Shown: positions 1 through 64,000, counted from the stretch's first letter. The stretch: 64,000 nt of DNA from an uncultured virus (IMG/VR IMGVR_UViG_3300025108_004750) (IMGVR_UViG_3300025108_004750), one strand, 5' to 3'. Translations and numbers: made by a program. Notes: generated from the sequence alone by a model not told the origin.

Positions 1-1
1 T

Positions 2-421
2 GCTGATCATTTTATTGGATGTGATAGTTTAGGACAACATATGGCAAAAGCATTAGGTACTACGTGTACTAGTGTTATTGGTAGTACATATCCTATTAAT
101 ATTTCTTATCCAAATTCACCAGACTTTGATATTATTGATTTAGGCGAAGGCAAGCGTAAGTTTAGTCCTATTAGACTTACAATGGAAGATTCAATTGAAC
201 GATTTAACGATGAAGTTATGGAGTTAAACGATGAAAGTTTTAAAAAAATTATTACAAGTGCTCGCAAGCGTTTGGGGAAACCGAGAAGTTACACAGGAAA
301 CTACAAACCGCAAGAAACACAAGCAGAAAACGTATGCCCAACTCATGGAGTAGTACATGCAGATGGGGCATCACATGGTAATAAACAACAAGCAAAAATC
401 TTAGGTCATACAGGTCAGTAA
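2..421 (+). CDS. GT9 (heptosyltransferase-like) glycosyltransferase, 5'-truncated by window edge
   Basis: Frame is open upstream of ATG41 (ADHFIGCDSLGQHMAKALG), matching the GT9 'FIGxDSGxxHxAxALG' motif; C-terminal CPTHGVVH tail. Confidence 0.65.
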   Translation, partial: ADHFIGCDSLGQHMAKALGTTCTSVIGSTYPINISYPNSPDFDIIDLGEGKRKFSPIRLTMEDSIERFNDEVMELNDESFKKIITSARKRLGKPRSYTGNYKPQETQAENVCPTHGVVHADGASHGNKQQAKILGHTGQ

Positions 422-422
422 A

Positions 423-1022
423 ATGGGAGGTCCGTCACAATCACCAGATCAGTTTCTAGGAGGCATTTCAACAATGTTTGATCCTAATTCAGAAAGGTTA
501 CAAGCACTTGATACATGGGTAGTAGATGATTTATACTATGCGGGTTATAAAAAGTTTTTAAAGTTGTTTGATAATTCTAACGATCGACATGTTGACTATG
601 GTAACGGAACTTTATATTATAAACAAGATATGCAGTATCCTACAGACATTGATCCTAGAGAAGAGTACTTAATGTTTATTAAGTTTCAGCTACAAGATTT
701 GCCTATCCGTATTAAAGATTTTAAAAAAGCATGGGGCGTAAAATATCCACCAGGTGCATACAGCGGATTACATTCACATCAACCTGGAAAACAACTAACA
801 AGTGTGTTATTTTTAGACACACCAAAACCAAGTGTAGAATATCCTTTAGCAGGTTGTTTAACTACACTACAGCCAACAAACAGTGAAATCACTTACTTAA
901 CACATAAGCCTATTGAAGGCAAAATGGTAATCTTAGATGGTAAAGTATGGCACGGATCTTATCCTACACTAGAAGATAGACACGTATTTGTTGTAGACTT
1001 TGAATATGAAGGTGTAATATAG
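423..1022 (+). CDS. 2OG-Fe(II) oxygenase-like (DSBH) protein
   Basis: HSH...WHG metal motif and terminal RxVFVVDF strand; paralogue of next gene. Confidence 0.6.
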   Translation: MGGPSQSPDQFLGGISTMFDPNSERLQALDTWVVDDLYYAGYKKFLKLFDNSNDRHVDYGNGTLYYKQDMQYPTDIDPREEYLMFIKFQLQDLPIRIKDFKKAWGVKYPPGAYSGLHSHQPGKQLTSVLFLDTPKPSVEYPLAGCLTTLQPTNSEITYLTHKPIEGKMVILDGKVWHGSYPTLEDRHVFVVDFEYEGVI

Positions 1023-1627
1023 TGGATATAGAAACTTTAGATACTGCATATCAAGGTGACAAAGACTTTTTTTGGTTATGTTATAACGGACGTATACCTG
1101 ACTATTGGATTAGTAAAGACAAATATACAGACTATAGTAAATTTTTAGAACTATTTGATAATCCACCAAAGTCACATATAGATTATGGCGGCGCAGTAAT
1201 ACAATATAAAGACGACGACTTCGCATATCCTTATAATGTAGATCAACAAGGTGTATATTTAGAATGGATTAAAAAGTCTATAGAAAAGTTTCAGTTTAAA
1301 AATATAAAATTTAAAAAGTGTTGGTGGTTAACATACCCAGAGAATACTTTTTCAGGATTACATACACATGAAGATAGAGGACAACGCACAATGACATGTG
1401 TTATGTTCTTAAACACAATATCAATAAGCACAGAAACACCACTAAATGGTAAATTAAAAGCAATTACCGTAAATCCTGTAACAGGTGAATTAGTAAGTGA
1501 TATGATAAAATGCATAGCAGGAGATGTAGTGGTTATGGATGGTAAAGTTTACCATGGCGTATATCCTACATTAGAAGAAAGAAAGGTATTTGTAGTTGAC
1601 TTTACATATGATGTAGAAATTGACTAA
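1022..1627 (+). CDS. 2OG-Fe(II) oxygenase-like (DSBH) protein, tandem paralogue
   Basis: GTG start; HTH...YHG, RKVFVVDF; shares Y-x-KFL-x-LFDN and H-x-DYG with previous ORF. Confidence 0.6.
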   Translation: MDIETLDTAYQGDKDFFWLCYNGRIPDYWISKDKYTDYSKFLELFDNPPKSHIDYGGAVIQYKDDDFAYPYNVDQQGVYLEWIKKSIEKFQFKNIKFKKCWWLTYPENTFSGLHTHEDRGQRTMTCVMFLNTISISTETPLNGKLKAITVNPVTGELVSDMIKCIAGDVVVMDGKVYHGVYPTLEERKVFVVDFTYDVEID

Positions 1628-1706
1628 TGATAAGGTTCAGTTCTTGTCAGCAATCACCAAGATTGCAAATACATACAGTATATAAAGAAACATAAAAGGA
1701 AACAAT

Positions 1707-3536
1707 ATGACACAGTGGATTGGAGCAATCACAAGAGGACATAACGGCGGCGCCGTATTATTAAAAGATGGTGAAATTGTATTTTCAATCGAAGAAGAAC
1801 GTCTAACTCGTAAAAAATACGACGGTGGACCACTTGCCGCAATGATTAAATTTCTTGATTATACAGATAAATTAGATTATCTTGTAGTAGCACATACACA
1901 ACCATTAGCAGAATCAAGTAGGATTGACTTTAGTGGTGGTGATATGTATACAGGATTAGCAAGGAAACTAGGACTAATTGATAGAAACGATAATGCTTAC
2001 ACAGCAGATGGCCAACATAATCATAGGCAAGTAATTGACCTAAGTCACATACATCATAAACTACATGCGGCCTGTGCATTTTATCGTTCAGGATTTGAAT
2101 CAGCAGTAAGTGTTATTGTTGATGGAGCAGGTACATTTATACCAATGAACATTAACATGGGAGTGTTTAACGAAGAATACATGTCATGGGAATGTGAAAG
2201 TATCTTTAATTGTGCATATCCTGATAACTTTAAAACTTTATATAAGCATCAAGGCGGTAACGGGCCTTTTCCAGGAACACGTATTCCGTATATTCCATCA
2301 GACCGCGAAGGTGAAGAAGGATTTCATGAACTTGTACTAGATGACAGTGCAGGTATTGTTAAAGCATACGAAGCAGTAACACAATATTGTGGATTCCAAC
2401 CTATTGAAGCAGGTAAAACTATGGGACTTGCGCCATATGGTAAGAAAAACTTAAATATTCCTCCAATTTATTCTGATGGTAATGGTGGCAAATGGCGAAC
2501 AAGTGATAGAAACGTTGTTATTCCAACATATCCAAATGCGGCTTTAATAAATGAAGCAAAATATGACTATTTAGAAACAGCACAAGATACAATTGATAAT
2601 AAAACTGACTTAACTACCCAAGAAAACCGTAGAGACTTAGCATATGCAGTACAAGAAGGATCACAACAAGAAGTATTGAACCTTATTTTTAAAGCAGTTG
2701 AAATGTCTGGCAATAAAAATGTAGTACTAAGTGGAGGCTATGCACTTAACTGTGTTGCAAACTACTGGTACCTTGATAAGTTGAATAAAGAAGGTATTAA
2801 GTTATATGTTGAACCTGTTAGTAACGATGCAGGCACAGCAATGGGTGCGGCTATGTTAGTATATCATCAAACTACTAAAGACAAAACTGTAAGACATTAT
2901 GCAGAAACAATCTACGAAGGTTTTGAATACACGTATACTAATGATCAAATTGAAGACACTGCAAACAAGTATGGTGCTTCGGTTATAGATGCAGATAATA
3001 AAAAAATTATCGAATTGATCAGAAGTAAAAATATTGTTACATTATTTCAAGGCAAAAGCGAAAACGGGCCACGTGCATTAGGAAATAGAAGCATACTTTT
3101 TGATCCAACACACGAAGATGGTAAGGATTATGTAAACAAAGTAAAGCGTAGAGAGTATTTTAGACCCTTTGCGGGAAGTATTCTTTTAGAACATGCACAC
3201 GAATGGTTTGATATGCGTGGATTAGAGCAAACACCGCATATGATGTATGCTATGGATTGTCAAGAAGGCATTGCAGAAAAGATTCCAAGCATCATTCATG
3301 TTGATGGTACTTGTAGAATTCAAACTGTGACCAAAGAACAAAACAAACACTACTATGAGCTTATTGAAGAGTTTCATAAACAAACAGGTGTTCCAATTAT
3401 TTTTAATACTAGTTTTAATTTAGGTGGTGAACCTTTAGTTGAAACATTAGATGATGCTGTACGTACACTATACAATAGTGAAATGGAGTATTGTTATCTA
3501 CCTGAGTATGGCAAACTAATTGAAATGAAAAACTAA
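1707..3536 (+). CDS. O-carbamoyltransferase (NodU/CmcH/TobZ family)
   Basis: EEERLTRKKY, HHKLHAACAFY, GKTMGLAPYG, SGGYALNC, GPRALGNRSIL, KRREYFRPFA, HVDGTCRIQTV, NTSFNLGGEPLV. Confidence 0.95.
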   Translation: MTQWIGAITRGHNGGAVLLKDGEIVFSIEEERLTRKKYDGGPLAAMIKFLDYTDKLDYLVVAHTQPLAESSRIDFSGGDMYTGLARKLGLIDRNDNAYTADGQHNHRQVIDLSHIHHKLHAACAFYRSGFESAVSVIVDGAGTFIPMNINMGVFNEEYMSWECESIFNCAYPDNFKTLYKHQGGNGPFPGTRIPYIPSDREGEEGFHELVLDDSAGIVKAYEAVTQYCGFQPIEAGKTMGLAPYGKKNLNIPPIYSDGNGGKWRTSDRNVVIPTYPNAALINEAKYDYLETAQDTIDNKTDLTTQENRRDLAYAVQEGSQQEVLNLIFKAVEMSGNKNVVLSGGYALNCVANYWYLDKLNKEGIKLYVEPVSNDAGTAMGAAMLVYHQTTKDKTVRHYAETIYEGFEYTYTNDQIEDTANKYGASVIDADNKKIIELIRSKNIVTLFQGKSENGPRALGNRSILFDPTHEDGKDYVNKVKRREYFRPFAGSILLEHAHEWFDMRGLEQTPHMMYAMDCQEGIAEKIPSIIHVDGTCRIQTVTKEQNKHYYELIEEFHKQTGVPIIFNTSFNLGGEPLVETLDDAVRTLYNSEMEYCYLPEYGKLIEMKN

Positions 3537-4135
3537 TGCTGGTAAACTTATATTCCATTCCAGTATATAAGATAAAATTACCGGAGCATGAACAAGTACA
3601 ACAAGACTTTGCTGATATACTTGATAAGGATGAGTATTTTAGCAAAGTACCTTCTTGGTACAGTCCTGTAGATACTACATATGGTAACCCTGATGCTTCG
3701 AACTTACCATTTAAGACGTTTATTAGATCAGCAATTACTGGACTAAACGAATATCTTGAAAACTTTAGTATAGACTTAAAATTAGATTATAGAATTGAGT
3801 GTTGGCTTAACAAATACAAACCTGGCTCATATCAAGAAGTACATAACCATGTAGGAGTTGCACAAATTAGTTGTGCTTACATGATGAACACACCAAAAGA
3901 TAGTGGCAACTTTGTATTCTATAACAAGGGCTATGACTTTTTACATCAATCAGGTCTTCCTGCATTGTCAACACAACCATTTAGATACAATAATAGAGTA
4001 ACACCTCCGTTAGAAGAAGGCGATATTGTATTTTTTCCTAGTAACTTAGAACATTACGTATCTAATAATACTAGCGACCAAATAAGGTCAACAATTAGTG
4101 CTAATTTTGTACTATCGGAGAAACAAGATGATTAA
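3536..4135 (+). CDS. putative 2OG-Fe(II) oxygenase (TIGR02466-like)
   Basis: WLNKY..QEVHNH..ISCAY; EGDIVFFPSNLEHYV..R.TISAN. Confidence 0.8.
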   Translation: MLVNLYSIPVYKIKLPEHEQVQQDFADILDKDEYFSKVPSWYSPVDTTYGNPDASNLPFKTFIRSAITGLNEYLENFSIDLKLDYRIECWLNKYKPGSYQEVHNHVGVAQISCAYMMNTPKDSGNFVFYNKGYDFLHQSGLPALSTQPFRYNNRVTPPLEEGDIVFFPSNLEHYVSNNTSDQIRSTISANFVLSEKQDD

Positions 4136-4847
4136 AAACACAATTAATGAAGAAGAAACATTTGCTGTTAATGAAAACTACGACACAAGATTACATAAGT
4201 TTGGAAAAGCAGGTGTACATGTATTAGTAGTTGATAACTTTTATAAAAATCCGCACTTAGTAAGACAACTTGCTTTAGATATTCCAGCATCTGTTAATAG
4301 ACGTATTAGAGGCGGAAACCCTGCACTAAGAATTAATGCATTTTACGAGTTATCAAGTCTAGCTCAACCATATCATCACTTAGCATCAGAGTTTTTTCCG
4401 GAGATAATGTATCAATACGAACCAGGATACATGGATAGAAGCTTTATGAATGCAACATTTATGATTAATGTTATGCAATCAGAAGGACTACCCCCACTTG
4501 CACCACATCAAGATAATCGATCAGGTATTAATCTTGCTAGTACAATTTATCTAAACAATGAAAACGAATCTGCTGGCGGCACAAGTTTTTACGAGTTTGG
4601 TGGCAAACACTTTTATACTGAAAGTGTAGTAGACAATGACTTTAATGTCACTATGGATGTAGAAGGTAAGATTCCAGTAACACAATACATTACTGATAGT
4701 TCACATGACTGGGAAATGATTGGAATGATACCAATGCAGTTTAATAGAATGGTATTATACAATCAAGCAGTATTACATACTGCATATGTTAAGCCGGGTA
4801 TGTTTGTAGATGATAACTACAGAATGAATCAGCAGTTTTTTATATAG
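4128..4847 (+). CDS. 2OG-Fe(II) oxygenase-like (DUF6445-like)
   Basis: VVDNFYKNP, PHQD, IYLN..GGTSFY, FNRMVLY..LH, R.NQQFF; GGAG SD before ATG4128. Confidence 0.7.
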   Translation: MIKNTINEEETFAVNENYDTRLHKFGKAGVHVLVVDNFYKNPHLVRQLALDIPASVNRRIRGGNPALRINAFYELSSLAQPYHHLASEFFPEIMYQYEPGYMDRSFMNATFMINVMQSEGLPPLAPHQDNRSGINLASTIYLNNENESAGGTSFYEFGGKHFYTESVVDNDFNVTMDVEGKIPVTQYITDSSHDWEMIGMIPMQFNRMVLYNQAVLHTAYVKPGMFVDDNYRMNQQFFI

Positions 4848-4856
4848 GAGAATAGT

Positions 4857-5438
4857 ATGGATGATAATTTTGATGGAGTAGAAGTATACGATAACATCTT
4901 TCCTATTGATTGGTGTAAGCAAGTAATCAAAAGATTCGAAGAATTATCTTCAATGCAGATGACTGCAATACAACAGCAAGGTGTTGATAGGAATCAAGAC
5001 GAACGTATATACATGGATTGGGCAAATCACAACAGTCATTATCATGCAGACGAAGATTTATGTAAATTTTTCTTTGAAACACTAAACAAAACATATTTAG
5101 AAAAGTATAAAAAGAAATATGAGAGCTTAGGATTGCTATTTCAACATACAGCAAAAGGTATGAGCGTTCAAAAAACAAAACCACACCAAGGATACCATGC
5201 ATGGCATTGCGAAAATGCTGATGTAGCAACAAGCACACGGGTATTAGCATACACAATATATCTAAATGGTGTTGAAGAAGGCGGTGAAACAGAATTTCTT
5301 TACCAAGGACATAAAATTAAACCTGTTCCAGGTAGACTAGCTATCTTTCCTACATCGTTTACACATCCACATCGAGGCAATCCTATCTACAAAGGCGTTA
5401 AGTACATTATAAGCGGATGGTATACATTAGATCACTAG
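4857..5438 (+). CDS. prolyl-4-hydroxylase-like 2OG-Fe(II) oxygenase
   Basis: YHAWHCE, IYLNGVEEGGETEF, FTHPHRGNP, KYIISGW. Confidence 0.88.
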   Translation: MDDNFDGVEVYDNIFPIDWCKQVIKRFEELSSMQMTAIQQQGVDRNQDERIYMDWANHNSHYHADEDLCKFFFETLNKTYLEKYKKKYESLGLLFQHTAKGMSVQKTKPHQGYHAWHCENADVATSTRVLAYTIYLNGVEEGGETEFLYQGHKIKPVPGRLAIFPTSFTHPHRGNPIYKGVKYIISGWYTLDH

Positions 5439-5445
5439 GAACAAA

Positions 5446-6903
5446 ATGAAAATAGCAGTAGTAGGTGGCGGCACAGCAGGCTTTGTGTCAGCGTTAATAT
5501 TAAAAACAAGTTTTCCAAACTTTGAAATTGATGTAATTCGATCTACTAAGATTGGAACTATTGGTGTAGGTGAAGGTTCAACAGAACATTGGTCTGCCTT
5601 TATGGATTTTGTTGGTATTCAAACAGGCGAACTTATTAATGAATGTGATGCTAGTTTTAAATCTGGTATTATGTTTGAAGACTGGAGTGAGAAACCATAC
5701 TTACAAAGTGTTCATGAGCCATATGTTGCTGAACAACTAGGCGCACCAATTGCATATGCTAAATTGATTGGTGAAAAGGTAGATGCTAGAGAGTTAACAG
5801 GTGAATACCTTTGGAATAATGCAACACCATTTAATAAATTTATGGACGAGCGTCCTAATGATACCGGAGTAGCACAATATCATTTTAATACTGCAAAGTT
5901 AAATGACTTTTTAACTAAGTTTTCATTAGATAAAGGCATTAATGTTATTGATGACGAGATTACTAGTGTAAATGTTAGTGAATGGAACAAAGTAGAAACA
6001 ATACAAGGCGAAAAAGAATTATATAAGTATGATTTTTATATTGACTGCACAGGCTTTGCTAGGTTATTAATTGATGCAGTTGGTGCTGAGTGGCAAAGTT
6101 ATAGTAAGTATCTTAAAATGAAAGAAGCTATTGTATTTCCTACACCAGAAGGAGATGAAATCCCAATATGGACACTTGCAAAAGCAATGGATGCTGGTTG
6201 GATGTTTCGTATACCTGTTCAAGGACGTACAGGTAATGGTTATATATTTGATAGTGACTTTATTACAGCCGAACAAGCACAAACCGAAGTTGAAAAATAT
6301 TTAGGACACGGTGTTGAAGTAGCAAAACATATTAAATTTGATCCAGGCACACTTGACAAAGCATGGATAGGTAACGTATGTGCTATTGGTCTGAGTCAAA
6401 GTTTTGTAGAACCATTAGAAGCAAGTAGTATTGGTAGTAGCATTAATCAAACATTTTTATTAGCACAACGTCTTATAAATCATAATCAAGAAACAATTAA
6501 TAGGTACAATCTCGAAGTTAATGCTATTATGGATAACATTAGAGACTTTATTGTGTTACATTATATTACTGAAAGAAGAGATACACCGTTTTGGAAAGCA
6601 GTATCAGAAACACCTATACCAGATAGTTTAGATAAAAATTTACGTATGTGGAAAGTTAGAATGCCAATTGCTGACGATATGACTACACATACTAAAAAAG
6701 TTTTGTTTAATGAATACAACTATGCATTAGTAATGCATGGCTTAGGATTATTTGATAACGAAAGTATATTAAAACAATATGAAACAGTTCCGCAAGGTGC
6801 AAAGGATCATGTTGAACAAGCAATACAACACAAATTAGAATTTGATAAAACAAAAACTATTCCGCACAAATTAATGCTTCAATTGTTGCGGAGACTAACA
6901 TGA
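5446..6903 (+). CDS. flavin-dependent halogenase (tryptophan halogenase/PrnA family)
   Basis: GGGTAG FAD motif, IGVGEGS, catalytic Lys in ASFKSGI, FYIDCTGF, GWMFRIP, FVEPLEASS. Confidence 0.9.
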   Translation: MKIAVVGGGTAGFVSALILKTSFPNFEIDVIRSTKIGTIGVGEGSTEHWSAFMDFVGIQTGELINECDASFKSGIMFEDWSEKPYLQSVHEPYVAEQLGAPIAYAKLIGEKVDARELTGEYLWNNATPFNKFMDERPNDTGVAQYHFNTAKLNDFLTKFSLDKGINVIDDEITSVNVSEWNKVETIQGEKELYKYDFYIDCTGFARLLIDAVGAEWQSYSKYLKMKEAIVFPTPEGDEIPIWTLAKAMDAGWMFRIPVQGRTGNGYIFDSDFITAEQAQTEVEKYLGHGVEVAKHIKFDPGTLDKAWIGNVCAIGLSQSFVEPLEASSIGSSINQTFLLAQRLINHNQETINRYNLEVNAIMDNIRDFIVLHYITERRDTPFWKAVSETPIPDSLDKNLRMWKVRMPIADDMTTHTKKVLFNEYNYALVMHGLGLFDNESILKQYETVPQGAKDHVEQAIQHKLEFDKTKTIPHKLMLQLLRRLT

Positions 6904-8901: not shown

Positions 8902-10380
8902 ATGGCAAAATCAACAATTAACTTAGGTACAGCCGCAAATGACGGTACTGGTGATAATCTTAGAGCAGGTGCTACTAAGGTTAATGCTAACACAGACGAG
9001 CTGTATAACGCTTTAGGCGACGGAACAAATCTTAAAGATATTGTAAACTCAAGTATGGAACTTGATATACAAAATGACGATTCAAAAATTAACAAAGTAG
9101 CATTTCATGCCGCAACGTTAAACCAAATGAACGCAATTAGCACAAGCACATATCATGGTGCAATGTTACACGTACATGAAGGTGGAACAGTTTATGTTGC
9201 ACATGCAAGTGCATGGCGCAAACTACTTTTAGATGCAAGTGCAGGAGCAATTCCTAACTATACAGATCCTTTAAAACCGGTTGCTTATGTAGGAAACATT
9301 AATAGTTTATCAGATGTTGATACAACATCACAGGCACCACAAACAGGCAACGTTCTTAAATGGGACGGTGGCAAATGGGCACCAGGAACAGATACTACAT
9401 CAGGTGGAGGCGGAACAGACGCTGACACATTAGACGGATTTGATAGTTCATACTTTACAAACTTTGATAACTTAAACAACAAGCCATCCATTCCGGCTTC
9501 ATTAGTTGATTTAAGTATTATTGACGGATCAAGTGGACAAGTTTTATCTGCAAACGGTAATGGAACATTTACTTTTATTACACCAGCGGCTGGCGGACTA
9601 CAAAATATTTTCCAAACAGTTGACGGCGATTCAGGTACTACTACAGCAAATTCACAAACAGATACATTAACAGTTGCTGGCGGTACAAACATTACAACTA
9701 GTGTTGTTGGCGATACACTAACTATTAATTATAGTGGTGATGCACTAAGTGGTGAAGCTAACCAAAACGCATTTAGTAATGTACAATCAGACGCAGGACT
9801 AGCGGCGGCTGATAGTAAAACTGATACACTAACTATTGCAGGTGGTACAAATATTACTACATCAGTATCAGGTGACACAGTTACTATTAACGGAACAGTT
9901 CCAACGTTTGCAAGTTTATCAGATACAGACTTAACAGGCGCAACAGCAGGTAATGTTTTAGTATATGATGGTTCAGACTGGATTGATAGTCCACATACAT
10001 ACGATCAGATTGCATATCCTGCAATGACAATGTTAACTGTAACAGCTGATAGTAATAACGGATATAAGTTTAGTCAATACGGTAATACAGAAGATCCAAC
10101 AATTTATGCTTTAGCAGGTGCAACGATTGCATTTAAAATTAACAGTGGCGCAAATCATCCATTCCAAATTGAAACAAGTGGAGGTTCACCATATAGTAAT
10201 GGACTTATACACGTTGCATTAGATGGAGAAGAGTCAACAGGATCAGATGCACAAGCTAAAACATCAGGTACATTATATTGGCAAGTTCCAGCAAATATTA
10301 GTGGCAATTATCAATATCAGTGTACAGTACACGGTTCAATGCAAGGTACTATTGTAGTGAAAGCATTGAGTGCAATTTAA
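8902..10380 (+). CDS. baseplate-attached fibre protein (gp9/gp10-like N-terminus) with C-terminal cupredoxin-like domain
   Basis: INLGTAANDGTGDNLRAGATKVNAN N-terminus; DTLTxAGGTNITT repeats; LSDVD..VLKWDG; HPF...YQCTVHGSMQG. Confidence 0.75.
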   Translation: MAKSTINLGTAANDGTGDNLRAGATKVNANTDELYNALGDGTNLKDIVNSSMELDIQNDDSKINKVAFHAATLNQMNAISTSTYHGAMLHVHEGGTVYVAHASAWRKLLLDASAGAIPNYTDPLKPVAYVGNINSLSDVDTTSQAPQTGNVLKWDGGKWAPGTDTTSGGGGTDADTLDGFDSSYFTNFDNLNNKPSIPASLVDLSIIDGSSGQVLSANGNGTFTFITPAAGGLQNIFQTVDGDSGTTTANSQTDTLTVAGGTNITTSVVGDTLTINYSGDALSGEANQNAFSNVQSDAGLAAADSKTDTLTIAGGTNITTSVSGDTVTINGTVPTFASLSDTDLTGATAGNVLVYDGSDWIDSPHTYDQIAYPAMTMLTVTADSNNGYKFSQYGNTEDPTIYALAGATIAFKINSGANHPFQIETSGGSPYSNGLIHVALDGEESTGSDAQAKTSGTLYWQVPANISGNYQYQCTVHGSMQGTIVVKALSAI

Positions 10381-18158: not shown

Positions 18159-18175
18159 TTGTACCTCTTTTTACT

Positions 18176-36154: not shown

Positions 36155-36179
36155 ATAGGCCCAATGGGCCTATTTTTTT
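36155..36179 (+). terminator. rho-independent terminator before terminase
   Basis: ATAGGCCC-AAT-GGGCCTAT followed by T run. Confidence 0.85.
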
Positions 36180-36181
36180 GG

Positions 36182-36188
36182 TTAAATA
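36182..36188 (+). promoter_or_regulatory. late promoter for terminase, leaderless configuration
   Basis: TTAAATA-CTAGT-ATG36194 immediately after a terminator; no SD. Confidence 0.7.
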
Positions 36189-36193
36189 CTAGT

Positions 36194-37774
36194 ATGAGTA
36201 CTTCTTTAGACGGCGTCTTAATTAAGAAAGCCAATAAAACAGAAACATACACTGATGCACAAATTGAGGACCTTGCAAAATGCATGGACCCTAAAGATGG
36301 CTACGACCACTTTGCACGTAAGTTTGCTTATATTCAACATCCAGTAAAAGGTAAATTATTGTTTGAACCTTTTGCATATCAATCACGATTACTTCAAAGT
36401 TATCACGATCATAGATTTAATATAAACATGTTGCCAAGGCAGACTGGTAAAACTACTACTGCCGCAATATACCTAGCATGGTATGCAATGTTTCACCCAG
36501 ATCAAACTGTATTAATTGCCGCACACAAGTATACAGGCGCACAAGAAATTATGCAACGTATACGTTATGTGTATGAATCATGTCCGGACCATATTAGAGC
36601 AGGTGTTACAAACTATAACAAAGGCTCAATGGAGTTTGAAAACGGATCACGTATTGTTAGTGCTACAACAACAGGCAACACAGGACGTGGTATGTCCATA
36701 TCATTATTATACTGTGACGAGTTTGCATTTGTGAATCCTAATATTGCAGAAGAATTTTGGACATCAATATCACCTACACTAGCAACAGGTGGTCGTGCTA
36801 TTATTACAAGCACACCTAATAGTGATGAAGATACGTTTGCTGTTATTTGGAAACAATCACAAGACAGATATGACACACACGGCAATGAACAACAAGTAGG
36901 TGTAAACGGATTTCATGGATTTACATGCAGTTGGGATGAACACCCTGATAGAGACGAAGAATGGAAAGTTGACGAAATTGGACGTATTGGTGAAGAGAAA
37001 TTTAGACGTGAATACGGTTGCGAATTCCTAGTATATGATGAAACATTAATTAATAGTATTCATCTATCGACAATGGAAGCAAAAAATCCTCTAATGAATA
37101 TGGGGCAAACACGTTGGTATGCTAAACCAACAGCAGATCAAAATTATGCAGTAGCACTTGATCCAGCAATGGGTACAGGTGGAGACTATGCCGCAATTCA
37201 AGTATTCGAACTTCCAAGTTATAAACAAGTAGCAGAATGGCGTCATAATGAAACTCCTATACCTGCACAAATTAGAATACTAAGAGATATTTGCACACAC
37301 ATACAAGATAGTTCTAAAGGAACTGGTAATAACATTTATTGGAGTGTTGAAAACAATAGTATTGGAGAAGCCGCACTTATTGTTATTAACGATTTTGGTG
37401 AAGAAAATATACCCGGACTATTTGTAAGTGAACCTATGCGTAAAGGACATGTACGTAAGTTCCGTAAAGGATTTAATACTACACATGGTACTAAGATTAC
37501 AGCATGTAGTCGTTTAAAAACTATGGTTGAAAATAATAAGATAACTATTAACAGTGGCCCATTAATTACTGAACTAAAAAATTATGTTGCTACAGGTACT
37601 AGTTTTAGAGCAAAGCCGGGAGCTAATGATGACTTGGTTAGTGCTACATTACTTGCACTAAGAATGATGGCAGTAATGAAAGACTGGGATCCACGTATAT
37701 ACAGTACGTTTACGCAAGCAGAAGGAGAAGAATCATACGAACCGCCAATGCCAATTTTTGTTAGCGGTTATTGA
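36194..37774 (+). CDS. terminase large subunit (gp17-like)
   Basis: PRQTGKTT Walker A, LLYCDEFAF Walker B, ITSTPN, FRREYGCEF, ALDPAMG.GGDY, NDDLV. Confidence 0.96.
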   Translation: MSTSLDGVLIKKANKTETYTDAQIEDLAKCMDPKDGYDHFARKFAYIQHPVKGKLLFEPFAYQSRLLQSYHDHRFNINMLPRQTGKTTTAAIYLAWYAMFHPDQTVLIAAHKYTGAQEIMQRIRYVYESCPDHIRAGVTNYNKGSMEFENGSRIVSATTTGNTGRGMSISLLYCDEFAFVNPNIAEEFWTSISPTLATGGRAIITSTPNSDEDTFAVIWKQSQDRYDTHGNEQQVGVNGFHGFTCSWDEHPDRDEEWKVDEIGRIGEEKFRREYGCEFLVYDETLINSIHLSTMEAKNPLMNMGQTRWYAKPTADQNYAVALDPAMGTGGDYAAIQVFELPSYKQVAEWRHNETPIPAQIRILRDICTHIQDSSKGTGNNIYWSVENNSIGEAALIVINDFGEENIPGLFVSEPMRKGHVRKFRKGFNTTHGTKITACSRLKTMVENNKITINSGPLITELKNYVATGTSFRAKPGANDDLVSATLLALRMMAVMKDWDPRIYSTFTQAEGEESYEPPMPIFVSGY

Positions 37775-40064: not shown

Positions 40065-41060
40065 ATGGCAACACTAGCAGAAATCAGAGCAAAGCTCAAA
40101 GAGCAAGAATCAAATACTGGCGGCAATCGATCGTCAGGTGGCGACAACGCAATTTTCCCATTTTGGAACATGCAAGAAGGACAGAGTTCAACTCTAAGAT
40201 TCCTTCCAGATGGAGATGAGACAAATACTTTCTTTTGGAAAGAACGTTTGATGATCAAACTTCCATTTGCAGGAATTAAAGGTGAGACAGACTCACGTCC
40301 TGTACAAGTGCAAATTCCATGTATGGAAATGTACGGACAAACATGCGATATCTTAAATGAGGTACGTGCATGGTTTAAAGATCCAAGTTTAGAAGACATG
40401 GGTCGTAAGTACTGGAAAAAGCGTTCATACGTATTTCAAGGGTTTGTAACAGAGAATGCTCTTAATGAGGATTCAACACCAGAGAATCCTGTACGTAGGT
40501 TCATAATTGGTCCACAAATTTTCCAAATTATTAAAGCGGCACTAATGGATCCAGACATGGAAGAATTACCAACAGATTATACTGCTGGTGTAGACTTCCG
40601 TCTTAACAAAACATCCAAAGGTGGTTATGCAGACTATTCAACATCTAACTGGGCACGTAGAGAGCGTCCATTAGCAGATGCTGAAATGAATGCAGTTAAT
40701 ACTAATGGTTTGTTTAATCTAAGTGATTTCCTTCCAAAACAACCTTCAGAAGTTGAAGTAAAAGTTATGAAGGAAATGTTTGAAGCATCAGTTGATGGTG
40801 AAGCATATGACATGGATCGTTTTGGTCAATATTTCCGTCCAGCGGGAATGGCGGCAAGAACAGGTGATCCACAGGCTAAAGCAGGAACACCTGCTCCGGC
40901 AACACCACCAGCGGCACCAGCGGCAACTCCAGCACCAGCGGCAACAGGTATGACAGCAGAAGCTCCAGTAGCAGAAGCGGCACCTGCGGCAACTACAGCT
41001 GAAGCACCGTCAGGCAAAGCTGAAGACATTTTATCAATGATTAGAGCACGTCAATCATAA
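40065..41060 (+). CDS. single-stranded DNA-binding protein (gp32-like)
   Basis: LRFLPD, YWKKRSY, G.DF.L.K..KGGYADYSTS; AGGAGG SD; Pro/Ala linker. Confidence 0.9.
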   Translation: MATLAEIRAKLKEQESNTGGNRSSGGDNAIFPFWNMQEGQSSTLRFLPDGDETNTFFWKERLMIKLPFAGIKGETDSRPVQVQIPCMEMYGQTCDILNEVRAWFKDPSLEDMGRKYWKKRSYVFQGFVTENALNEDSTPENPVRRFIIGPQIFQIIKAALMDPDMEELPTDYTAGVDFRLNKTSKGGYADYSTSNWARRERPLADAEMNAVNTNGLFNLSDFLPKQPSEVEVKVMKEMFEASVDGEAYDMDRFGQYFRPAGMAARTGDPQAKAGTPAPATPPAAPAATPAPAATGMTAEAPVAEAAPAATTAEAPSGKAEDILSMIRARQS

Positions 41061-49693: not shown

Positions 49694-49717
49694 GTAGATG
49701 TATAGGAGAGCATAATT

Positions 49718-50877: not shown

Positions 50878-51533
50878 AAGCATTTGTAATATCTATCCCG
50901 GGTCATGAAGACAGTCAGTTACATGCTGATAGATGTATTCAATCTGTTACAGATACAAACTCAGAATTAGATATTGAAAAGTTTGATGCTATTGTTCCTG
51001 AAACAATGTGGCAAGTAGATTGGAAATGGCCTTACAGTAAGAAAAAAGTTTGTCCAAAAACAGGCATGACGCTTAAAGCATACAAGACATACGATATGAC
51101 TAAACGTATTGCGGCGGCAGGCAGTCATTATAAACTATGGCAAAAGAGTGTTGAGCTTAATGAAACTATTATGATACTTGAACATGATGCTATTTTCTAT
51201 AGACAGTTTAAGCCATTTGAGTTTGAAGGTGGTGCTATTAGTATTAACAATCCAGACCATGCTACGTTTAATTGGAAACTATACGACAAGTTAGATAACT
51301 CAGGAGAACAAGAAGTTCCTTGGGTAGCGGACCAAACTATTCCGCAAGGATTACCAGGACATAGTGCTTATATTATTAAGCCAGATGCCGCAGAAAAAGT
51401 TTGTAGTTTGCAAGATACAATTGGCTGGTGGCCTAATGATGCTATTATGTGTAAACAACTATGTACGTGGTTACGATCCTATAAACCATATTTTACAAAA
51501 GTACAGGGTATCAAATCAACAACAAGTAAATAA
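50874..51533 (+). CDS. glycosyltransferase family 25
   Basis: KAFVISI, SHYKLWQK, ILEHDA, AYIIKP..A. Confidence 0.8.
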   Translation: MKAFVISIPGHEDSQLHADRCIQSVTDTNSELDIEKFDAIVPETMWQVDWKWPYSKKKVCPKTGMTLKAYKTYDMTKRIAAAGSHYKLWQKSVELNETIMILEHDAIFYRQFKPFEFEGGAISINNPDHATFNWKLYDKLDNSGEQEVPWVADQTIPQGLPGHSAYIIKPDAAEKVCSLQDTIGWWPNDAIMCKQLCTWLRSYKPYFTKVQGIKSTTSK

Positions 51534-51541
51534 CTACGTAC

Positions 51542-51548
51542 ATAAATA
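51542..51548 (+). promoter_or_regulatory. late promoter, leaderless configuration, heading second GT sub-block
   Basis: ATAAATA-TCAGT-ATG51554. Confidence 0.7.
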
Positions 51549-51553
51549 TCAGT

Positions 51554-53016: not shown

Positions 53017-53019
53017 TTT

Positions 53020-56488: not shown

Positions 56489-56496
56489 GTTATAAT
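56468..56496 (+). promoter_or_regulatory. sigma70 promoter, leaderless configuration
   Basis: TTGACT-N17-TATAAT-N6-ATG56503. Confidence 0.8.
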
Positions 56497-56502
56497 ATAC
56501 AC

Positions 56503-57726
56503 ATGAAGTTAGAAAAACCATCTACATGTGAGGACTGTCTATCCTTTTTGCTTAAAGAAGGTCAAGCGTCAATCGTAGACAAAGGCATATTAGTTAGTAT
56601 TAATAAGCAGTTGTCTAAGAAGATTCCGTTGACTGATAGGCAATATGCATTGCTTAAAGGCAAGTTATTAAACTATACTAGGTGTTGGCAAGAAAACGAT
56701 ATTGACGAAAGTGTTTTTGACGTACTAAAATATCCATTAAGAGAAATAGATAGATCGCATTGGATCAAGATACTTGAATATCAAGATAATGAAGTAATTG
56801 GTATTAGATTCCCATTTAATAAAAAAGTTATTGATAGGATAGAAGACCTGCGTAAATTAGATACTCATAATCAAAAAAGTCATTACTATAAAGATAATAC
56901 ACATTGCTTTCCATTAACTCCTAAAAATATATTTGAAGTAGTTGAAATAGCAAATAGGTTTAACACTAAATTTACTGTACAGGATGATATAATTAATATC
57001 TATAATCAATTAGTAGAATACGAAAAGAATAGAGATGATTATATACCAGGTGTGTATGATTATACTGTTTCAAATATTCCTGACATAGCAAAAGAAGATT
57101 TAAAAAATCAATTAGGCGAGTGTGATAAAGATACATTATCGTTATATTATGATAGAAGATACTTGTACGGACTACAAGAATTTAATGAACATTTAGTTAA
57201 TGAGAGTATAAAGCAACATAGTACTGTAGCTCAAACTATTATTAAAAGAGATAATGCAGTTGTACTACTTAATAATAAAAGTGTAAACTTAAACGACTTA
57301 TTATCAGCAATACCTGAAATTAATAGACTTCCAATGCTAGTTTCATTAAATCCACACAATGCACATGATACATTATTTGCAGTACATAATATACTTAAAC
57401 ATATTATTCCTACTGAACAAATGAGTGTAATGTTTAGAAAACCGGGCAATGATCCAATTAATGATTACATTAAAGAACAAAAACTTAATAATATGGTTGA
57501 CAAAGATACCAAAGTAGTGTATATTAGTAGTATTAAATTACCAAAGCCGTTATTACAAGCAGATTGGAAAGCGAGCTGTGTTCTATCTTTTGATAGTTCT
57601 AAGTTAACATTTAACAATGTAACTAATTATGTAGACGGATTTGATTTGCGTATTACATATGATGAGATTGCAATTGGCGGACTTTGGGATAGAGGCGAGA
57701 GGAGATACTTACGTGCGAACATGTAA
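56503..57726 (+). CDS. hypothetical protein upstream of UvsW
   Basis: 407-aa intact ORF, LTDRQ and IRFPFN motifs; own promoter. Confidence 0.75.
   Translation: MKLEKPSTCEDCLSFLLKEGQASIVDKGILVSINKQLSKKIPLTDRQYALLKGKLLNYTRCWQENDIDESVFDVLKYPLREIDRSHWIKILEYQDNEVIGIRFPFNKKVIDRIEDLRKLDTHNQKSHYYKDNTHCFPLTPKNIFEVVEIANRFNTKFTVQDDIINIYNQLVEYEKNRDDYIPGVYDYTVSNIPDIAKEDLKNQLGECDKDTLSLYYDRRYLYGLQEFNEHLVNESIKQHSTVAQTIIKRDNAVVLLNNKSVNLNDLLSAIPEINRLPMLVSLNPHNAHDTLFAVHNILKHIIPTEQMSVMFRKPGNDPINDYIKEQKLNNMVDKDTKVVYISSIKLPKPLLQADWKASCVLSFDSSKLTFNNVTNYVDGFDLRITYDEIAIGGLWDRGERRYLRANM
57497..57525 (+). promoter_or_regulatory. possible internal sigma70 promoter upstream of uvsW
   Basis: TTGACA-N17-TATATT inside the 407-aa gene. 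Confidence 0.45.
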
Positions 57727-60044: not shown

Positions 60045-60047
60045 AAT

Positions 60048-60761
60048 ATGTTTAGTAACATTGATAAAAGTATGATGCTTAAACTTGCACTTCTGCACGT
60101 TGTAGTGATTACTATTTCAAATGCTTTAGTTTCTATTCCGGTAGAAATTGCAGGCATTAAATTAACATGGGCGGCGTTTACATTCCCGCTTGTGGTATTA
60201 GCAACTGACTTAACTGTTAGAATGCTAGGCAAGAACATTGCTAGAGCAACTATTGCGGCGGCATATCCACTTGCTATTATTGGATCAATCGCAGTAGTAC
60301 TTGCTGAAGGTGCTCCACAGTCAGTAGCAATGCGTATTGGTTTTGCATCAGCAACTGCATACGCCGTAGGTACAATGCTCGATGTATATGTATTCCAATA
60401 TATTAGAGAGAAGATGTCAGCATGGTGGTTAGCACCAGCATTGTCAACAGTTGTTGCAAACATCATCGATACATACACATTCTTCGCAGTAGCGTTTAAT
60501 AACTCAGCAGATGAGTATATGGCCGCTAACTGGATGGAGATTGCAGGATCGCAAGTTGTGATTAAGATTGCAGTAGGTTTAATTATCTTCCTACCAGCAT
60601 ACGGTGTACTACTACGTTACCTAAACGGTAAACTAGGAGAGGACATTCTTGTGCTAAAAGATGAAGTAGTTGAAAAGCCAAAAGCAAAGGCAAAAGTAAA
60701 AGCCCCAGCTAAAAAGACTACTGCTAAAAAGACTACTAAGTCTAAAGCGAAAAAAGGCTAA
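60048..60761 (+). CDS. yhhQ: queuosine-precursor (preQ0/preQ1) transporter, Vut_1/YhhQ family, with Lys-rich tail
   Basis: ISNALV, TWAAFTFP...ATDLTVR.LG...AR, RIGFAS..AY..G..LD..VF, IDTY.FF..AF. Confidence 0.88.
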   Translation: MFSNIDKSMMLKLALLHVVVITISNALVSIPVEIAGIKLTWAAFTFPLVVLATDLTVRMLGKNIARATIAAAYPLAIIGSIAVVLAEGAPQSVAMRIGFASATAYAVGTMLDVYVFQYIREKMSAWWLAPALSTVVANIIDTYTFFAVAFNNSADEYMAANWMEIAGSQVVIKIAVGLIIFLPAYGVLLRYLNGKLGEDILVLKDEVVEKPKAKAKVKAPAKKTTAKKTTKSKAKKG

Positions 60762-60766
60762 TTGAT

Positions 60767-61039
60767 ATGGGTAAACTTATACCCAATCAAGCACTGATAT
60801 ACGAGCGTAGCGAAGGAGTCGTCTACGCTCGTTATCGTGATCCGCCACATAATAAAATACCTCGTTGGGTAATAGGTGGCGAGCCAGATGCAACTGCAAA
60901 AGCATTAGGCATTGTAAGTTATGACGAATGGAAAAATGTAATGCGAATTGCAGAAAGTAATGCAAATGTTAAAAAACAATTTGATAGACTAATGACAATG
61001 TATTATGTAGTCAAAGATGAACAAGAGGAAATCCAATGA
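60767..61039 (+). CDS. hypothetical protein
   Basis: LIP..ALIYER..GVVYAR; contains a strong DNA hairpin. Confidence 0.7.
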   Translation: MGKLIPNQALIYERSEGVVYARYRDPPHNKIPRWVIGGEPDATAKALGIVSYDEWKNVMRIAESNANVKKQFDRLMTMYYVVKDEQEEIQ

Positions 61040-61809
61040 GAATTATAGCAGGGCCATGCCAACACGAAACACTTACAGAAAGTTTAATGATTGCTAAAGA
61101 GTGTCAACGTGTATGTGATAAACACGGCATTGAATATTATTTTAAAGCAAGTTTTGATAAAGCAAATAGAAGCAGTATGCAGGGCAAGCGAGGTGTTGGA
61201 TTAAATGCAACACTAACTGACTTTCAACAAATAAAAGACACAGTGGGCTCTAAGACGCTCACAGACGTTCATACAGTAGAGCAAATTAGTCACGTTACTA
61301 CTTTCTTTAATAATGCTGTAGACGTACTACAAATACCCGCATTTCTTTGTAGACAAACTGACCTATTACAGGCGGCTTGTTCTACAGATAAAATAGTAAA
61401 TATAAAGAAGGGACAATTTTTAGCTCCCTGGGATGTCAAAGGTATACTAAGCAAGTGTACAGATGCCAACGAAGTTTGGATTACTGAGAGAGGAACAAGT
61501 TTTGGATACAATAGTCTTGTTGTGGATTATACTGGTCTTATCTATATGCTCGATAATTATGATAATGATATTGTGTTTGATGTTACGCACTCTGTCCAAA
61601 AACCCGGAGGACTGGGGGATAGTAGCGGCGGGAATCGTGATTACGTGCCTGGGCTCGCTCGTGCTGGGTCTGCTCTTGGGATCACTTCCTTCTTCCTCGA
61701 AGTCCACCCTATGCCTGATGACTCGCCAAGCGATGGTCCAAATATGCTTAGACTAGATGACTTCGAACAAGTAGTGGATGACTTAGTTAAATATCAGTAT
61801 GAACAATAA
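61036..61809 (+). CDS. kdsA: KDO-8-phosphate synthase
   Basis: IAGPCQ, KASFDKANRSS, LTDVH, QIPAFLCRQTDL, NIKKGQFLAP, ERGTSFGY, FDVTHSVQ, EVHP.P..S.SDG. Confidence 0.95.
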   Translation: MRIIAGPCQHETLTESLMIAKECQRVCDKHGIEYYFKASFDKANRSSMQGKRGVGLNATLTDFQQIKDTVGSKTLTDVHTVEQISHVTTFFNNAVDVLQIPAFLCRQTDLLQAACSTDKIVNIKKGQFLAPWDVKGILSKCTDANEVWITERGTSFGYNSLVVDYTGLIYMLDNYDNDIVFDVTHSVQKPGGLGDSSGGNRDYVPGLARAGSALGITSFFLEVHPMPDDSPSDGPNMLRLDDFEQVVDDLVKYQYEQ

Positions 61810-62800
61810 ATTTGAAAATGCTTATAACCAAGTAGCACAAGCCTGTCCTCCTATATGGATGATGCGACAAGCTGGCAGATATCAAAAAGGTTATATGGAA
61901 ATGAAAGAACATTGGTCGTTTGAACAAATGTGTAAACTACCAAGACTAGCAAGCCAAGTTGCTATGCTACCAATTAATCAGTTTGACTTTGACATTGCAA
62001 TACTGTTTAGTGATATATTATTTCCTATTGAAGGATTAGGTGTACCATTAAAGTTTGATCCAGGTCCAAAATTTGAATGGCACATTAACGAAGAAAATTA
62101 TAAACAACATTCTAATATTCAACTTGCTGTAAACCATATGGAGTTTCAAGCAAAGGCAGTAACAGCAACAAGAGAAGCACTACCTGCTAAAAAAAGTTTA
62201 ATAGGTTTTGTTGGCGGACCGTGGACACTACTAAACTATGCTATAGGCAAAGATGCAAAAGTAAGTTTAGGTTGGAAAACAAAATACATGAATGAAGTTA
62301 TTATGCCTTTGCTTGTACGTAATATTCATTTGCAATTAGATGCTGGTGCTGAAAAAGTAATGATACTTGATAGTGGTGTAGGTAATATGAGCGAAAGCTA
62401 TTTTAAGAAGCACTACGTTAACACACTACAACCAATGATACAAACTGACACAGGCTATTACACACAACACTTAAATTCAAGATGCTTACCTACTCTATAT
62501 AAAATGGGGTGGGCAGGTATAGGTATTGATAGTACTGTTGATATTACTAACACATTTAAAAAATATAAAGACGGATTTATTCAGGGCAATTTTGACGAAA
62601 AACTTTTACTGTTACCAAAAGAAGAATGTAGAGCACACATTGAAGATTTTTGTAACACAATGCAAACAATCGACCGTACAGGTTGGATCTGCGGACTAGG
62701 ACATGGTATAACTAAAGAAACACCAGAAGAAAATGTTAAAATGTTTGTAGATATGATAAGAGAAAGATTCGATGAAAACAGCAATACTAATACCCGCTAG
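61799..62800 (+). CDS. hemE: uroporphyrinogen decarboxylase
   Basis: PIWMMRQAGRY, AILFSDIL, IGFVGGPWTL..Y, IQGNFD, GLGHGI..TP.ENV. Confidence 0.9.
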   Translation: MNNKFENAYNQVAQACPPIWMMRQAGRYQKGYMEMKEHWSFEQMCKLPRLASQVAMLPINQFDFDIAILFSDILFPIEGLGVPLKFDPGPKFEWHINEENYKQHSNIQLAVNHMEFQAKAVTATREALPAKKSLIGFVGGPWTLLNYAIGKDAKVSLGWKTKYMNEVIMPLLVRNIHLQLDAGAEKVMILDSGVGNMSESYFKKHYVNTLQPMIQTDTGYYTQHLNSRCLPTLYKMGWAGIGIDSTVDITNTFKKYKDGFIQGNFDEKLLLLPKEECRAHIEDFCNTMQTIDRTGWICGLGHGITKETPEENVKMFVDMIRERFDENSNTNTR

Positions 62801-63434
62801 ATTAAAGAGTACACGATTAGCTGATAAGATGTTAGTCGAACTAGACGGCGTACCATTAATTAAAAGAGTATTTGATATATGTAATGCAACTAAGTTTGAC
62901 ACTTACATTGTAACAGATAGTTTAGAGATTGCAGAAATATCTCCTAACTTTATTCTTACAGGAGAAGCAAGTAACGGCACAGAAAGATGTGCATTAGCCG
63001 CACGTGAGTTAAATTATGATCAGTATATTAACGTGCAAGGCGATATGCCTGACATACGACCTGATATGATAAAAGACGTAGCAGATTATCTACAGTATTA
63101 TCCAATTACAACTTTGTTTACTGGTATGGATAAGGAAGAACAAAATAAACCTAGCACTGTTAAAATGATACGTGCAGGTGACAAAGCTCTTTGGTTTGGT
63201 AGAGGTATGCAGGGTTATGGTGAATGGCACTTAGGTGTGTACGGTTATAGGGCGGATGCATTAAACTTATATCCAAACCTAGAAGTAACAGTAGAAGAAG
63301 AAACAGAAAAATTAGAACAACTACGTTGGCTCAAAGCAGGCTGGGATATAGGTTGCACAAGAGTAGATTTTAAAGGCGTAGAGATAAACACACAAGAAGA
63401 TATTCTTCTTTGGAATCACAAAAATAATGCTTGA
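62772..63434 (+). CDS. kdsB: CMP-Kdo synthetase
   Basis: IPARLKSTRL..K, GTERC, INVQGDMP, HLGVYGYR, EKLEQLRWL. Confidence 0.93.
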   Translation: MKTAILIPARLKSTRLADKMLVELDGVPLIKRVFDICNATKFDTYIVTDSLEIAEISPNFILTGEASNGTERCALAARELNYDQYINVQGDMPDIRPDMIKDVADYLQYYPITTLFTGMDKEEQNKPSTVKMIRAGDKALWFGRGMQGYGEWHLGVYGYRADALNLYPNLEVTVEEETEKLEQLRWLKAGWDIGCTRVDFKGVEINTQEDILLWNHKNNA

Positions 63435-63459
63435 CTTTATTACTAAAAGGTACTATAAT
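63431..63459 (+). promoter_or_regulatory. sigma70 promoter, leaderless configuration
   Basis: TTGACT-N17-TATAAT-N6-ATG63466. Confidence 0.8.
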
Positions 63460-63465
63460 TAAACT

Positions 63466-63918
63466 ATGAACAAACTTCCAATTAAAGATATATTAGCCGC
63501 AGTTGATATGGGTGCATTAACCGTATGGGATGAACTATCAGATGAAGAACGCAAACAAGTTAGTTTTTACTTGTTGAATAGATATGTTAGTAGTGTCAAA
63601 GGTAATAGAGAAAGTCAAGAACTTGCAGTATTCAAAACAAATGAATATTACAACAAACATTTCTTTACACTACAGAAACACAAGAAACTTCTTTGGCAAC
63701 TACTGTGTTTAAGTGGCAACACTAAAAGCATTGCATACCACGAATGGATTGGACACAAGAAAAAAGGTACAGGTGATAATAGCAAAGCAACTAAGTTTCT
63801 AATGCAAATGTATCCTAATATGAAACAAGATGAAGTAGAACTAATGGCCCAATTATCTACTAAGAAAGAAATAAAAGCATGGGCAAAAGATCACGGCATT
63901 GAGGATTTAAAATTATGA
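63466..63918 (+). CDS. probable clamp loader A subunit (gp62-like)
   Basis: FYLLNRYVSS..NEY.N....L..H..L.WQLL....WI..KK pattern resembles gp62. Confidence 0.5.
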   Translation: MNKLPIKDILAAVDMGALTVWDELSDEERKQVSFYLLNRYVSSVKGNRESQELAVFKTNEYYNKHFFTLQKHKKLLWQLLCLSGNTKSIAYHEWIGHKKKGTGDNSKATKFLMQMYPNMKQDEVELMAQLSTKKEIKAWAKDHGIEDLKL

Positions 63919-64000
63919 AAGTAAGTATTAATGACATTGGTGGAGAGATTGCTAAAGAAGATGAAAGGTATATTGTTAAAGATAATACAACATTAAAAAA
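63915..64000 (+). CDS. hypothetical protein, 3'-truncated by window edge
   Basis: ATGA overlap with previous stop, GAGG SD, frame open to end (MKVSINDIGGEIAKEDERYIVKDNTTLK). Confidence 0.55.
   Translation, partial: MKVSINDIGGEIAKEDERYIVKDNTTLK

Follow-up and report, generated by a model that had tools for sequence, protein, structure and literature searches.

Complete absence of the pentamer GCWGC from a 64-kb segment of an uncultured marine giant phage and from its close relatives

The 64-kb window and its missing pentamer

The stretch of DNA analysed here, IMG/VR record IMGVR_UViG_3300025108_004750, comprises 64,000 bases of an uncultured virus (36% G+C; hereafter the window, meaning the stretch at its full length), and the subject of this report is a five-base word that it lacks, GCWGC (W, A or T). 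The window derives from a giant marine myovirus that is abundant, uncultured and, in its core genes, T4-like. Tail sheath, tube and baseplate genes, a terminase, gp32, UvsX, UvsY and a deoxynucleoside monophosphate kinase are all encoded, and these T4-like structural and replication modules indicate a tailed phage with double-stranded DNA (dsDNA), of whose genome the window makes up ~20%. The terminase large subunit (TerL; 36164..37774, + strand) served as the marker for placement and trait mapping. By TerL identity the nearest cultured relative is Pseudomonas phage PA5oct (54.8%), and a near-identity DNA search of a cultured-phage collection returned no match.

An exact count over both strands gave GCAGC = 0 and GCTGC = 0 in a window that holds 315 GCAG and 133 GCTG tetramers, so that the total absence claimed in a preliminary description of the sequence proved to be literal. 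A maximal-order Markov model predicts 81.3 occurrences (z = –9.0). Permuting synonymous codons within each of the 71 called open reading frames (94.6% of the window) gave a similar expectation, with 88.9 ± 4.3 sites and a minimum of 77 over 300 rounds. Among 501 reverse-complement-collapsed 5-mers, a ranking limited to words with a Markov expectation of at least 8, GCWGC was the lowest and the sole extreme value; the second-lowest, ACGCC, reached 33 occurrences versus 68.2 expected (z = –4.3). The 4-mers and 6-mers of the window were screened as well, and none was eliminated to a comparable degree. GCWGC is the only strongly purged word in the window, and the three comparisons that the preliminary description had named as its check (Markov, codon shuffle and all 4–6-mers) agree in singling it out.

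Other words that the description had listed as present do occur: GATC (182), CCWGG (63), GGWCC (37), GGCC (44), GANTC (120) and GCSGC (117; S, G or C). Equal depletion of GCSGC or of other pentamers, which it had held to count against its claim, was not found. No rival 5-mer emerged, and GCSGC is enriched, both over the whole window (117 versus 76.8 expected under the Markov model) and inside genes (113 versus 28.8 ± 4.6 in the codon shuffles), where the surplus roughly matches the deficit of GCWGC. As a separate observation on word usage, the window shows a mild shortage of AGCT (observed/expected 0.60, versus 0.87 in the normal-count relative G002), a shortage that is strong in all seven sampled marine T4-like phages that are cultured or linked to a single amplified genome (SAG) (0.18–0.74), and CTGCAG is low in both the window (0.32) and G002 (0.44).

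Synonymous loss at Ala-Ala pairs

Of the 89.0 sites expected from the shuffles, 80.3 (approximately 90%) would lie in frame 0, as GCW-GCN codon pairs encoding Ala-Ala. The window contains 97 such dipeptides, and the first codon is GCG (74) or GCC (23) in every one. Ala codons that precede a non-Ala residue are distributed quite differently (GCA 857, GCT 378, GCG 42 and GCC 42), with GCG and GCC accounting for 84 of 1,319 (6%). The preliminary description had drawn this distinction between single Ala codons and those that open a pair, and codon read-out at the four places it cited gives the codons it described. These are CTT GCC GCA near 1833 in the carbamoyltransferase gene (1830..1838, + strand), CTA GCG GCG GCT near 9799 in the gene for the baseplate/tail-fibre connector (9799..9810, + strand), GCG GCG GCA from 51111 (51111..51119, + strand), and the Ala/Pro-rich linker of the gp32-like single-stranded DNA-binding protein (40880..41000, + strand; gene 40065-41060). 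The five Ala-Ala pairs of this linker are all written GCG-GCA, three of them as CCA GCG GCA, and its single Ala residues are written GCA or GCT.

In the other two reading frames ~8.7 sites were expected and none is present; no surplus of GCSGC occurs there. Codons for Pro, Thr, Val, Gly, Ser, Leu and Arg that precede GC keep their usual A/T endings, and because these four-fold families retain their preference, a general codon-pair bias was rejected. The protein sequence itself has scarcely yielded, with 97 Ala-Ala dipeptides versus 111 expected from per-gene composition. The ratio of GCG to GCC at recoded positions (74:23) was also considered as a trace of a recent purge. This idea was dropped, since the ratio fits the purine:pyrimidine split at Ala third positions elsewhere (899:420) and is equally explained by that split remaining unchanged; no timing is drawn from it.

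These features bear on the possibility that the cause is not a defence at all, but a mutational process acting at the word or a functional signal confined to special places in the genome. The putative products of deamination occur at expectation (GTAGC 95 versus 90.7, GTTGC 167 versus 160.6; that is, GTWGC/GCWAC as a whole), and deamination of methylcytosine was therefore rejected as a route; the loss reflects selection under protein constraint instead of a mutational drain. The same follows from its manner, since the sites disappear through the central base and in strictly synonymous fashion, as expected for selection on the word under protein constraint.

To see how recoded positions behave over time, window genes starting between 25,000 and 50,000 were compared with their orthologues at 80 loci, L001–L080 (minus L012, L020, L042 and L054). 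These are the best 80 of more than 602 IMG/VR stretches matched by TerL, on contigs of up to 357 kb. In the zero-site relatives L001–L006, the first codon is GCG or GCC in each of the 79 orthologous Ala-Ala comparisons. They include 11 switches between GCG and GCC, so the recoded positions do evolve. Where the second Ala has been replaced in these relatives, the first codon is GCA or GCT in 10 of 11 cases. In normal-count relatives, 334 of 414 comparisons have GCA or GCT, and thus a site: GCG of the window stands opposite GCA 87 times and GCT 36 times, and GCC opposite GCT 128 times and GCA 83 times, all of these counts being pseudo-replicated over relatives.

Codon behaviour of this kind is also informative about a technical explanation, in which methylated GCWGC would be systematically misread as GCSGC and the sites would be present in the true DNA. 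Such an error would account for a GCSGC surplus that mirrors the GCWGC deficit, with the change always at the central base, and nanopore errors at methylated GCWGC have been published for Listeria ST87, in the portion of that report available to us. However, the same sequence recurs in independent data. A second IMG/VR record, 99.87% identical over window positions 501-32526, has no site versus 41.8 expected. At least half of the sampled words of a 10-kb stretch of the window were found in 19 sequencing runs labelled marine metagenome, and some part of it in 20 runs from 14 studies with run dates of 2014-2021; runs X13 and X15, which gave near-identical tables and are probably one data set filed twice, were counted once, and the window may itself come from the sample behind the run that contains the stretch most fully. 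In run X1, long contigs show 13 differences from the window over 17,086 bases; run X11 contains a second strain, which departs from the window by a few percent. Natural variants add little, since none of the 40 listed (739 further ones exist) creates a GCWGC site when only 0.37 were expected, a test without power. Dozens of diverged relatives share the absence, and other relatives in the same collection are normal. Because no record gives the platform on which the runs were sequenced, most weight falls on the codon choice, which tracks amino-acid context across orthologues unlike any error process. On the independent records and this tracking a base-calling artefact was rejected, and we regard it as extremely improbable.

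Distribution of the purge among relatives

Among the best 80 TerL loci, the six closest (86-98% identity) have no site, with 9.5-20.3 expected in each; those that follow, at 82-84%, are depleted in part (3 versus 26 in one case); and loci at 75-80% identity mostly have observed/expected ratios near 1. A few strongly depleted loci are scattered through the survey (L035, 1 versus 18.9; L050, 3 versus 21.2; L069, 1 versus 29.3; L057, 1 versus 11.1). Two further markers gave zero-site loci in 22 of 36 cases (KdsB) and 24 of 25 cases (a gene at the left end of the window), and zero-site relatives reach down to ~71% nucleotide identity (about 71-77%).

The purge is not restricted to the region covered by the window. 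Five larger related contigs (61.5, 52.6, 66.3, 68.5 and 41.6 kb, with 86, 72, 91, 62 and 55 sites expected, respectively) contain no site over 290 kb versus 366 expected. Leftward they reach ~22-31 kb beyond the window and rightward 20 kb. G010, one of the five, shares synteny with a far-off part (~210-320 kb) of a relative whose genome is complete, so the purge is genome-wide and not local. The purged relatives are all fragments, at most 19% complete, and the complete 357-kb relative has a normal count, with 770 sites versus 868 expected. For a functional signal, some room is left by the ~80% of the genome that is unseen, where a few functional copies could lie; the 290 kb of relatives, other genome regions included, are without a copy. 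Taken with the synonymous route of loss, this makes a cause other than defence very unlikely.

A quick maximum-likelihood tree of TerL, on which the test of monophyly below is also based, places the window in a clade of 14 rows (Shimodaira–Hasegawa-like approximate likelihood-ratio support 99). Every row of this clade is depleted and the inner seven rows are zero-site, whereas the nearest outgroups are normal (L025, 31 versus 31; L028, 22 versus 24). Three more depleted groups, each with normal sisters, lie elsewhere on the tree, and the fewest changes of state that it allows is five. Grouping all 18 depleted rows into one clade is rejected by an approximately unbiased test (Δ log-likelihood 356, p = 1.6e-72), where depletion means an observed/expected ratio below 0.45, a definition made after the tree had been viewed. 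The TerL tree does not unite the depleted lineages.

Within contigs the trait can be uneven. Locus L054 has 17 of its 19 sites in the left half, and L007 has five of its eight within 300 bases (L007:4621-4921). Contig G006 has 39 sites versus 90.7 expected, with normal density over some stretches and one 10-kb stretch that is site-free. Such mosaic contigs suggest exchange between purged and unpurged lineages; from one gene, repeated gains, repeated losses and recombination cannot be told apart. Overall, strong, sequence-specific and long-maintained selection against GCWGC is well supported by the synonymous removal, the tracking of Ala context in codon choice, the absence down to ~71-77% identity and the normal sister lineages. 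The preliminary description had argued for selection of this strength and duration, and the comparison with related phage genomes that it recommended shows the absence to be shared by close relatives, with sister lineages and the 357-kb relative normal.

A patchy trait in close relatives, together with mosaic contigs, is also what a gained and lost accessory gene would produce. The phage might encode its own GCWGC endonuclease, for example for shredding host DNA, and spare its own genome through loss of the sites, and most of the genome is unseen. However, Pfam and PHROGs searches of the 64-kb window, of ~18 kb flanking it and of the 68-kb G010 found no nuclease of restriction type. The nuclease-like hits that did appear (a TnsA-like 'head closure' protein, UvdE and a 5'-3' exonuclease) are core T4-type genes common to normal-count relatives. 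The first of these, annotated 'head closure' by PHROGs (33137-33571, + strand), carries a TnsA-like endonuclease N-terminal domain (PF08722, E 2e-23) and is conserved in all relatives, including those with normal counts. Moreover, no window gene was found to be both common to all purged lineages and absent from the normal genome, in a comparison with G002, G004, G005 and G006. On this evidence a phage-encoded endonuclease appears quite unlikely. No integrase-annotated family turned up in the general Pfam and PHROGs scans of the window, flanks and G010. The remaining inventory of G010 (a purged contig also represented by L264-L267) includes two ClpP genes, a ClpB-like AAA+ chaperone, DnaJ, Cpn10, Cu/Zn superoxide dismutase, iron–sulfur assembly proteins, an adenylate/guanylate cyclase domain, UvdE, PhoH, MazG and peptide deformylase.

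Probable host restriction and the alternatives

The explanation that we consider probable is sustained selection by a DNA-cleaving defence of the host population that recognizes GCWGC, of the TseI/ApeKI/BbvI type. BbvI, a Type IIS enzyme, recognizes GCAGC and would leave the same footprint. Two candidates are an orthodox Type II restriction-modification system that recognizes G^CWGC, as TseI and ApeKI do, and an enzyme of BbvI type. Each GCWGC site would then carry a chance of cleavage before the host methylase protects it, and we propose that variants with fewer sites would plate better as a result. For sites in Ala-Ala pairs the sole silent escape would be from GCW to GCG or GCC, the change seen at all 97 pairs, and sites in the other two frames would be avoided through other synonymous choices. 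The identity of GCWGC as the TseI/ApeKI site, stated in the preliminary description, is confirmed in the accessible parts of two papers (PMC4926085; PMC3643589). Likewise, the accessible part of a survey by Rusinov et al. 2018 (PMC6286503) reports complete site elimination in roughly a tenth of phage genomes, almost only at orthodox Type II sites, more strongly in non-temperate dsDNA phages and not in phages with hydroxymethyl-cytosine. The host restriction invoked by the preliminary description is thus the best reading of the data, although the restriction enzyme as agent, its host-encoded origin and a phage DNA that is otherwise unmodified at GCWGC are what we infer and not what we observe.

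The description had further held that the C and G bases of the phage are not globally protected by modification. Searches for modification genes are consistent with this statement, short of proving it. Neither PF00145 nor PF01555 (C5 and N4/N6 DNA methyltransferase domains) was found in 11 related records, nor PF01702 or PF06508 (TGT/DpdA and QueC) in 10 related records; the complete relative encodes a canonical thymidylate synthase, ThyA, above equivalog cut-offs; and the methyltransferase-like genes of the window are of FkbM or Methyltransf_24 types within the glycan cluster.

The same searches bear on a modification-dependent nuclease (Type IIM/IV, for instance of the BisI family) as the agent. 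GCWGC would be marked by a methyltransferase in one host and cut in the next, and a site-free genome would never be marked. In the accessible part of PMC4926085 the family is described as cutting m5C-modified GCNGC, with some members preferring GCWGC, the core word avoided here. Orphan GCWGC methyltransferases occur in aquatic bacteria and elsewhere, according to the portions of the literature available, and GCWGC is among the Type IIM sites for which the survey by Rusinov et al. (PMC6286503), in the part accessible, found counts reduced in 66.3% of the genome-site pairs examined. However, that part also states that modification-dependent enzymes are weakly avoided and that elimination is found almost only with orthodox Type II enzymes. 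BisI-type enzymes need methylated cytosines and also cut GCSGC (PMC4926085, same part), whereas GCSGC is enriched in the window and no source of methylation was seen, with no methyltransferase found in the phage relatives searched. We therefore regard an agent of this type as unlikely.

Several observations weigh against a plain host restriction enzyme, and the first group concerns the host. With about 20% of the phage genome seen, a nuclease, methylase or base modification encoded by the phage could lie elsewhere in it. The preliminary description had proposed the missing word as a host fingerprint, and we followed this idea without arriving at a named host. A scan of cellular genome contigs with hemE gave no match, and a scan with KdsA gave only 43-50% identity in scattered taxa, a result probably shaped by the peptide patterns used. 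All seven cultured or SAG-linked marine T4-like phages that were sampled (five cyanophages, one SAG-linked virus and the pelagiphage HTVC008M; 30-50 kb each) show no avoidance, with observed/expected ratios of 1.05-1.41: Sf-FS3 (54 observed, 43.5 expected), P-SSM2 (51, 48.4), S-CAM1 (114, 82), S-CAM8 (69, 62.4), P-SSM7 (57, 40.5), AG-345-L05 (69, 61.3) and HTVC008M (65, 58.7). Normal counts in phages of Synechococcus, Prochlorococcus and Pelagibacter mean that the commonest cultured marine hosts are not implicated. In addition, the accessible part of published single-molecule real-time (SMRT) metaepigenomes gives GCWGC methylation in Chloroflexi bins only. Chloroflexi are unlikely hosts given that the phage has 36% GC and carries heptose and Kdo (3-deoxy-D-manno-octulosonate) genes. 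SMRT sequencing detects 5-methylcytosine (m5C) poorly.

The heptose and Kdo genes suggest a Gram-negative host. They belong to sets of glycan and small-molecule genes at window positions 1707-7766, 16904-22325, 43668-57726 and 61036-63434, which comprise a carbamoyltransferase, three genes of the tryptophan-halogenase family, at least five 2-oxoglutarate-Fe(II) oxygenase-like genes, cupins, HldE-like heptose genes, KdsA, KdsB, glycosyl- and sulfotransferases and FkbM-type methyltransferases. For the carbamoyltransferase the best match is the enzyme of a Synechococcus phage (67%), and most cultured phages that share it are cyanophages; the window has its carbamoyltransferase-heptose cassette in common with the cyanophages Sf-FS3, S-CAM1 and P-SSM2. 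The photosystem gene psbA was found neither in the complete relative nor in four fragments. The hemE (uroporphyrinogen decarboxylase) homologue (61799-62800, + strand) scores 214 bits against an equivalog cut-off of 303; it is present in G009 (72%) and not in G002, G004, G005 or G006.

The second difficulty lies in the sites that remain. In partly purged relatives (L007-L013, L035, L040, L050, L057, G004 and G005), the base 5' of 31 surviving GCAGC sites, a few of which are shared between related contigs, is G in 18 cases, T in 10, C in two and A in one, compared with A 43%, T 27%, G 19% and C 12% in the normal genome G002. The excess of G and the deficit of A each have a binomial p of ~1e-6. 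A plain GCWGC enzyme does not predict this bias, which stands unexplained; to our knowledge, a 5'-G bias of surviving sites is not a property of TseI, ApeKI or BbvI. In the window itself, the frame-0 GCSGC sites are preceded by all four bases (A 42, T 33, G 16 and C 6), indicating that sites were recoded regardless of flank. In the sister subclade of the window, survivors are mostly TGCAGC.

One gene of the window could be relevant to this bias. A protein of the Vut_1/YhhQ family (60048-60761, + strand; PF02592, E 2.8e-24), which we take to be a transporter of the queuosine precursors preQ0/preQ1, has homologues in the depleted lineages G004 and G010, and in G010 the gene adjoins FolE at the end of the contig. 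The search found no YhhQ homologue in G002 or G003, both of which have normal counts, or in G007 or G009, two fragments from purged relatives. FolE belongs to the core genes of the group, normal-count genomes included, and has no Que neighbours in the complete genome. YhhQ and the G-flanked survivors would fit a context-specific 7-deazaguanine shield under which only the sites that cannot be shielded are purged. As an explanation in itself such a shield was set aside, with TGT/DpdA and QueC not found in the 10 related records and the correlation with YhhQ alone remaining. It forms part of a broader reading, in which a GCWGC defence is widespread in uncultured marine hosts, purges have occurred repeatedly and separately (at least five changes of state), and the target is either longer than five bases or subject to conditional shielding; we consider this joint reading unlikely.

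If host restriction is the cause, a GCWGC endonuclease and DNA methylated at GCWGC are predicted in the host population, and the purge offers a sharp, testable marker for connecting an uncultured marine giant phage, and an abundant one, with its host. Pressure on some lineages and not on their sisters amounts to a natural experiment on the pace and route by which a 350-kb genome sheds several hundred sites. The marker could also be put to use, since digestion with TseI or ApeKI followed by size selection should leave purged genomes intact and so allow their enrichment from viromes.

As a phenomenon, the purge is textbook restriction avoidance. The avoided word is exactly the site of TseI/ApeKI (G^CWGC, Type IIP) and BbvI; unlike this word, neither the TauI site GCSGC nor GCNGC taken together is avoided, and no such enzyme or methylase was located in any candidate host. 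Restriction-avoiding phages in the accessible part of the survey (PMC6286503) show the same complete loss of an orthodox Type II word by way of codon choice, and the phage of the window is likewise a dsDNA tailed phage without sign of hydroxymethyl-cytosine. For the survey phages both host and enzyme are known, whereas the present phage is an uncultured marine giant with neither named. Within the best-ranked part of the literature naming GCWGC, no report of its purge in marine phages was found. What is new, then, beside a known form of restriction-site avoidance, is an unusually clean case in a marine giant phage and, compared with the phages in that part of the survey, a trait mapped over wild relatives, with several separate lineages and mosaic contigs.

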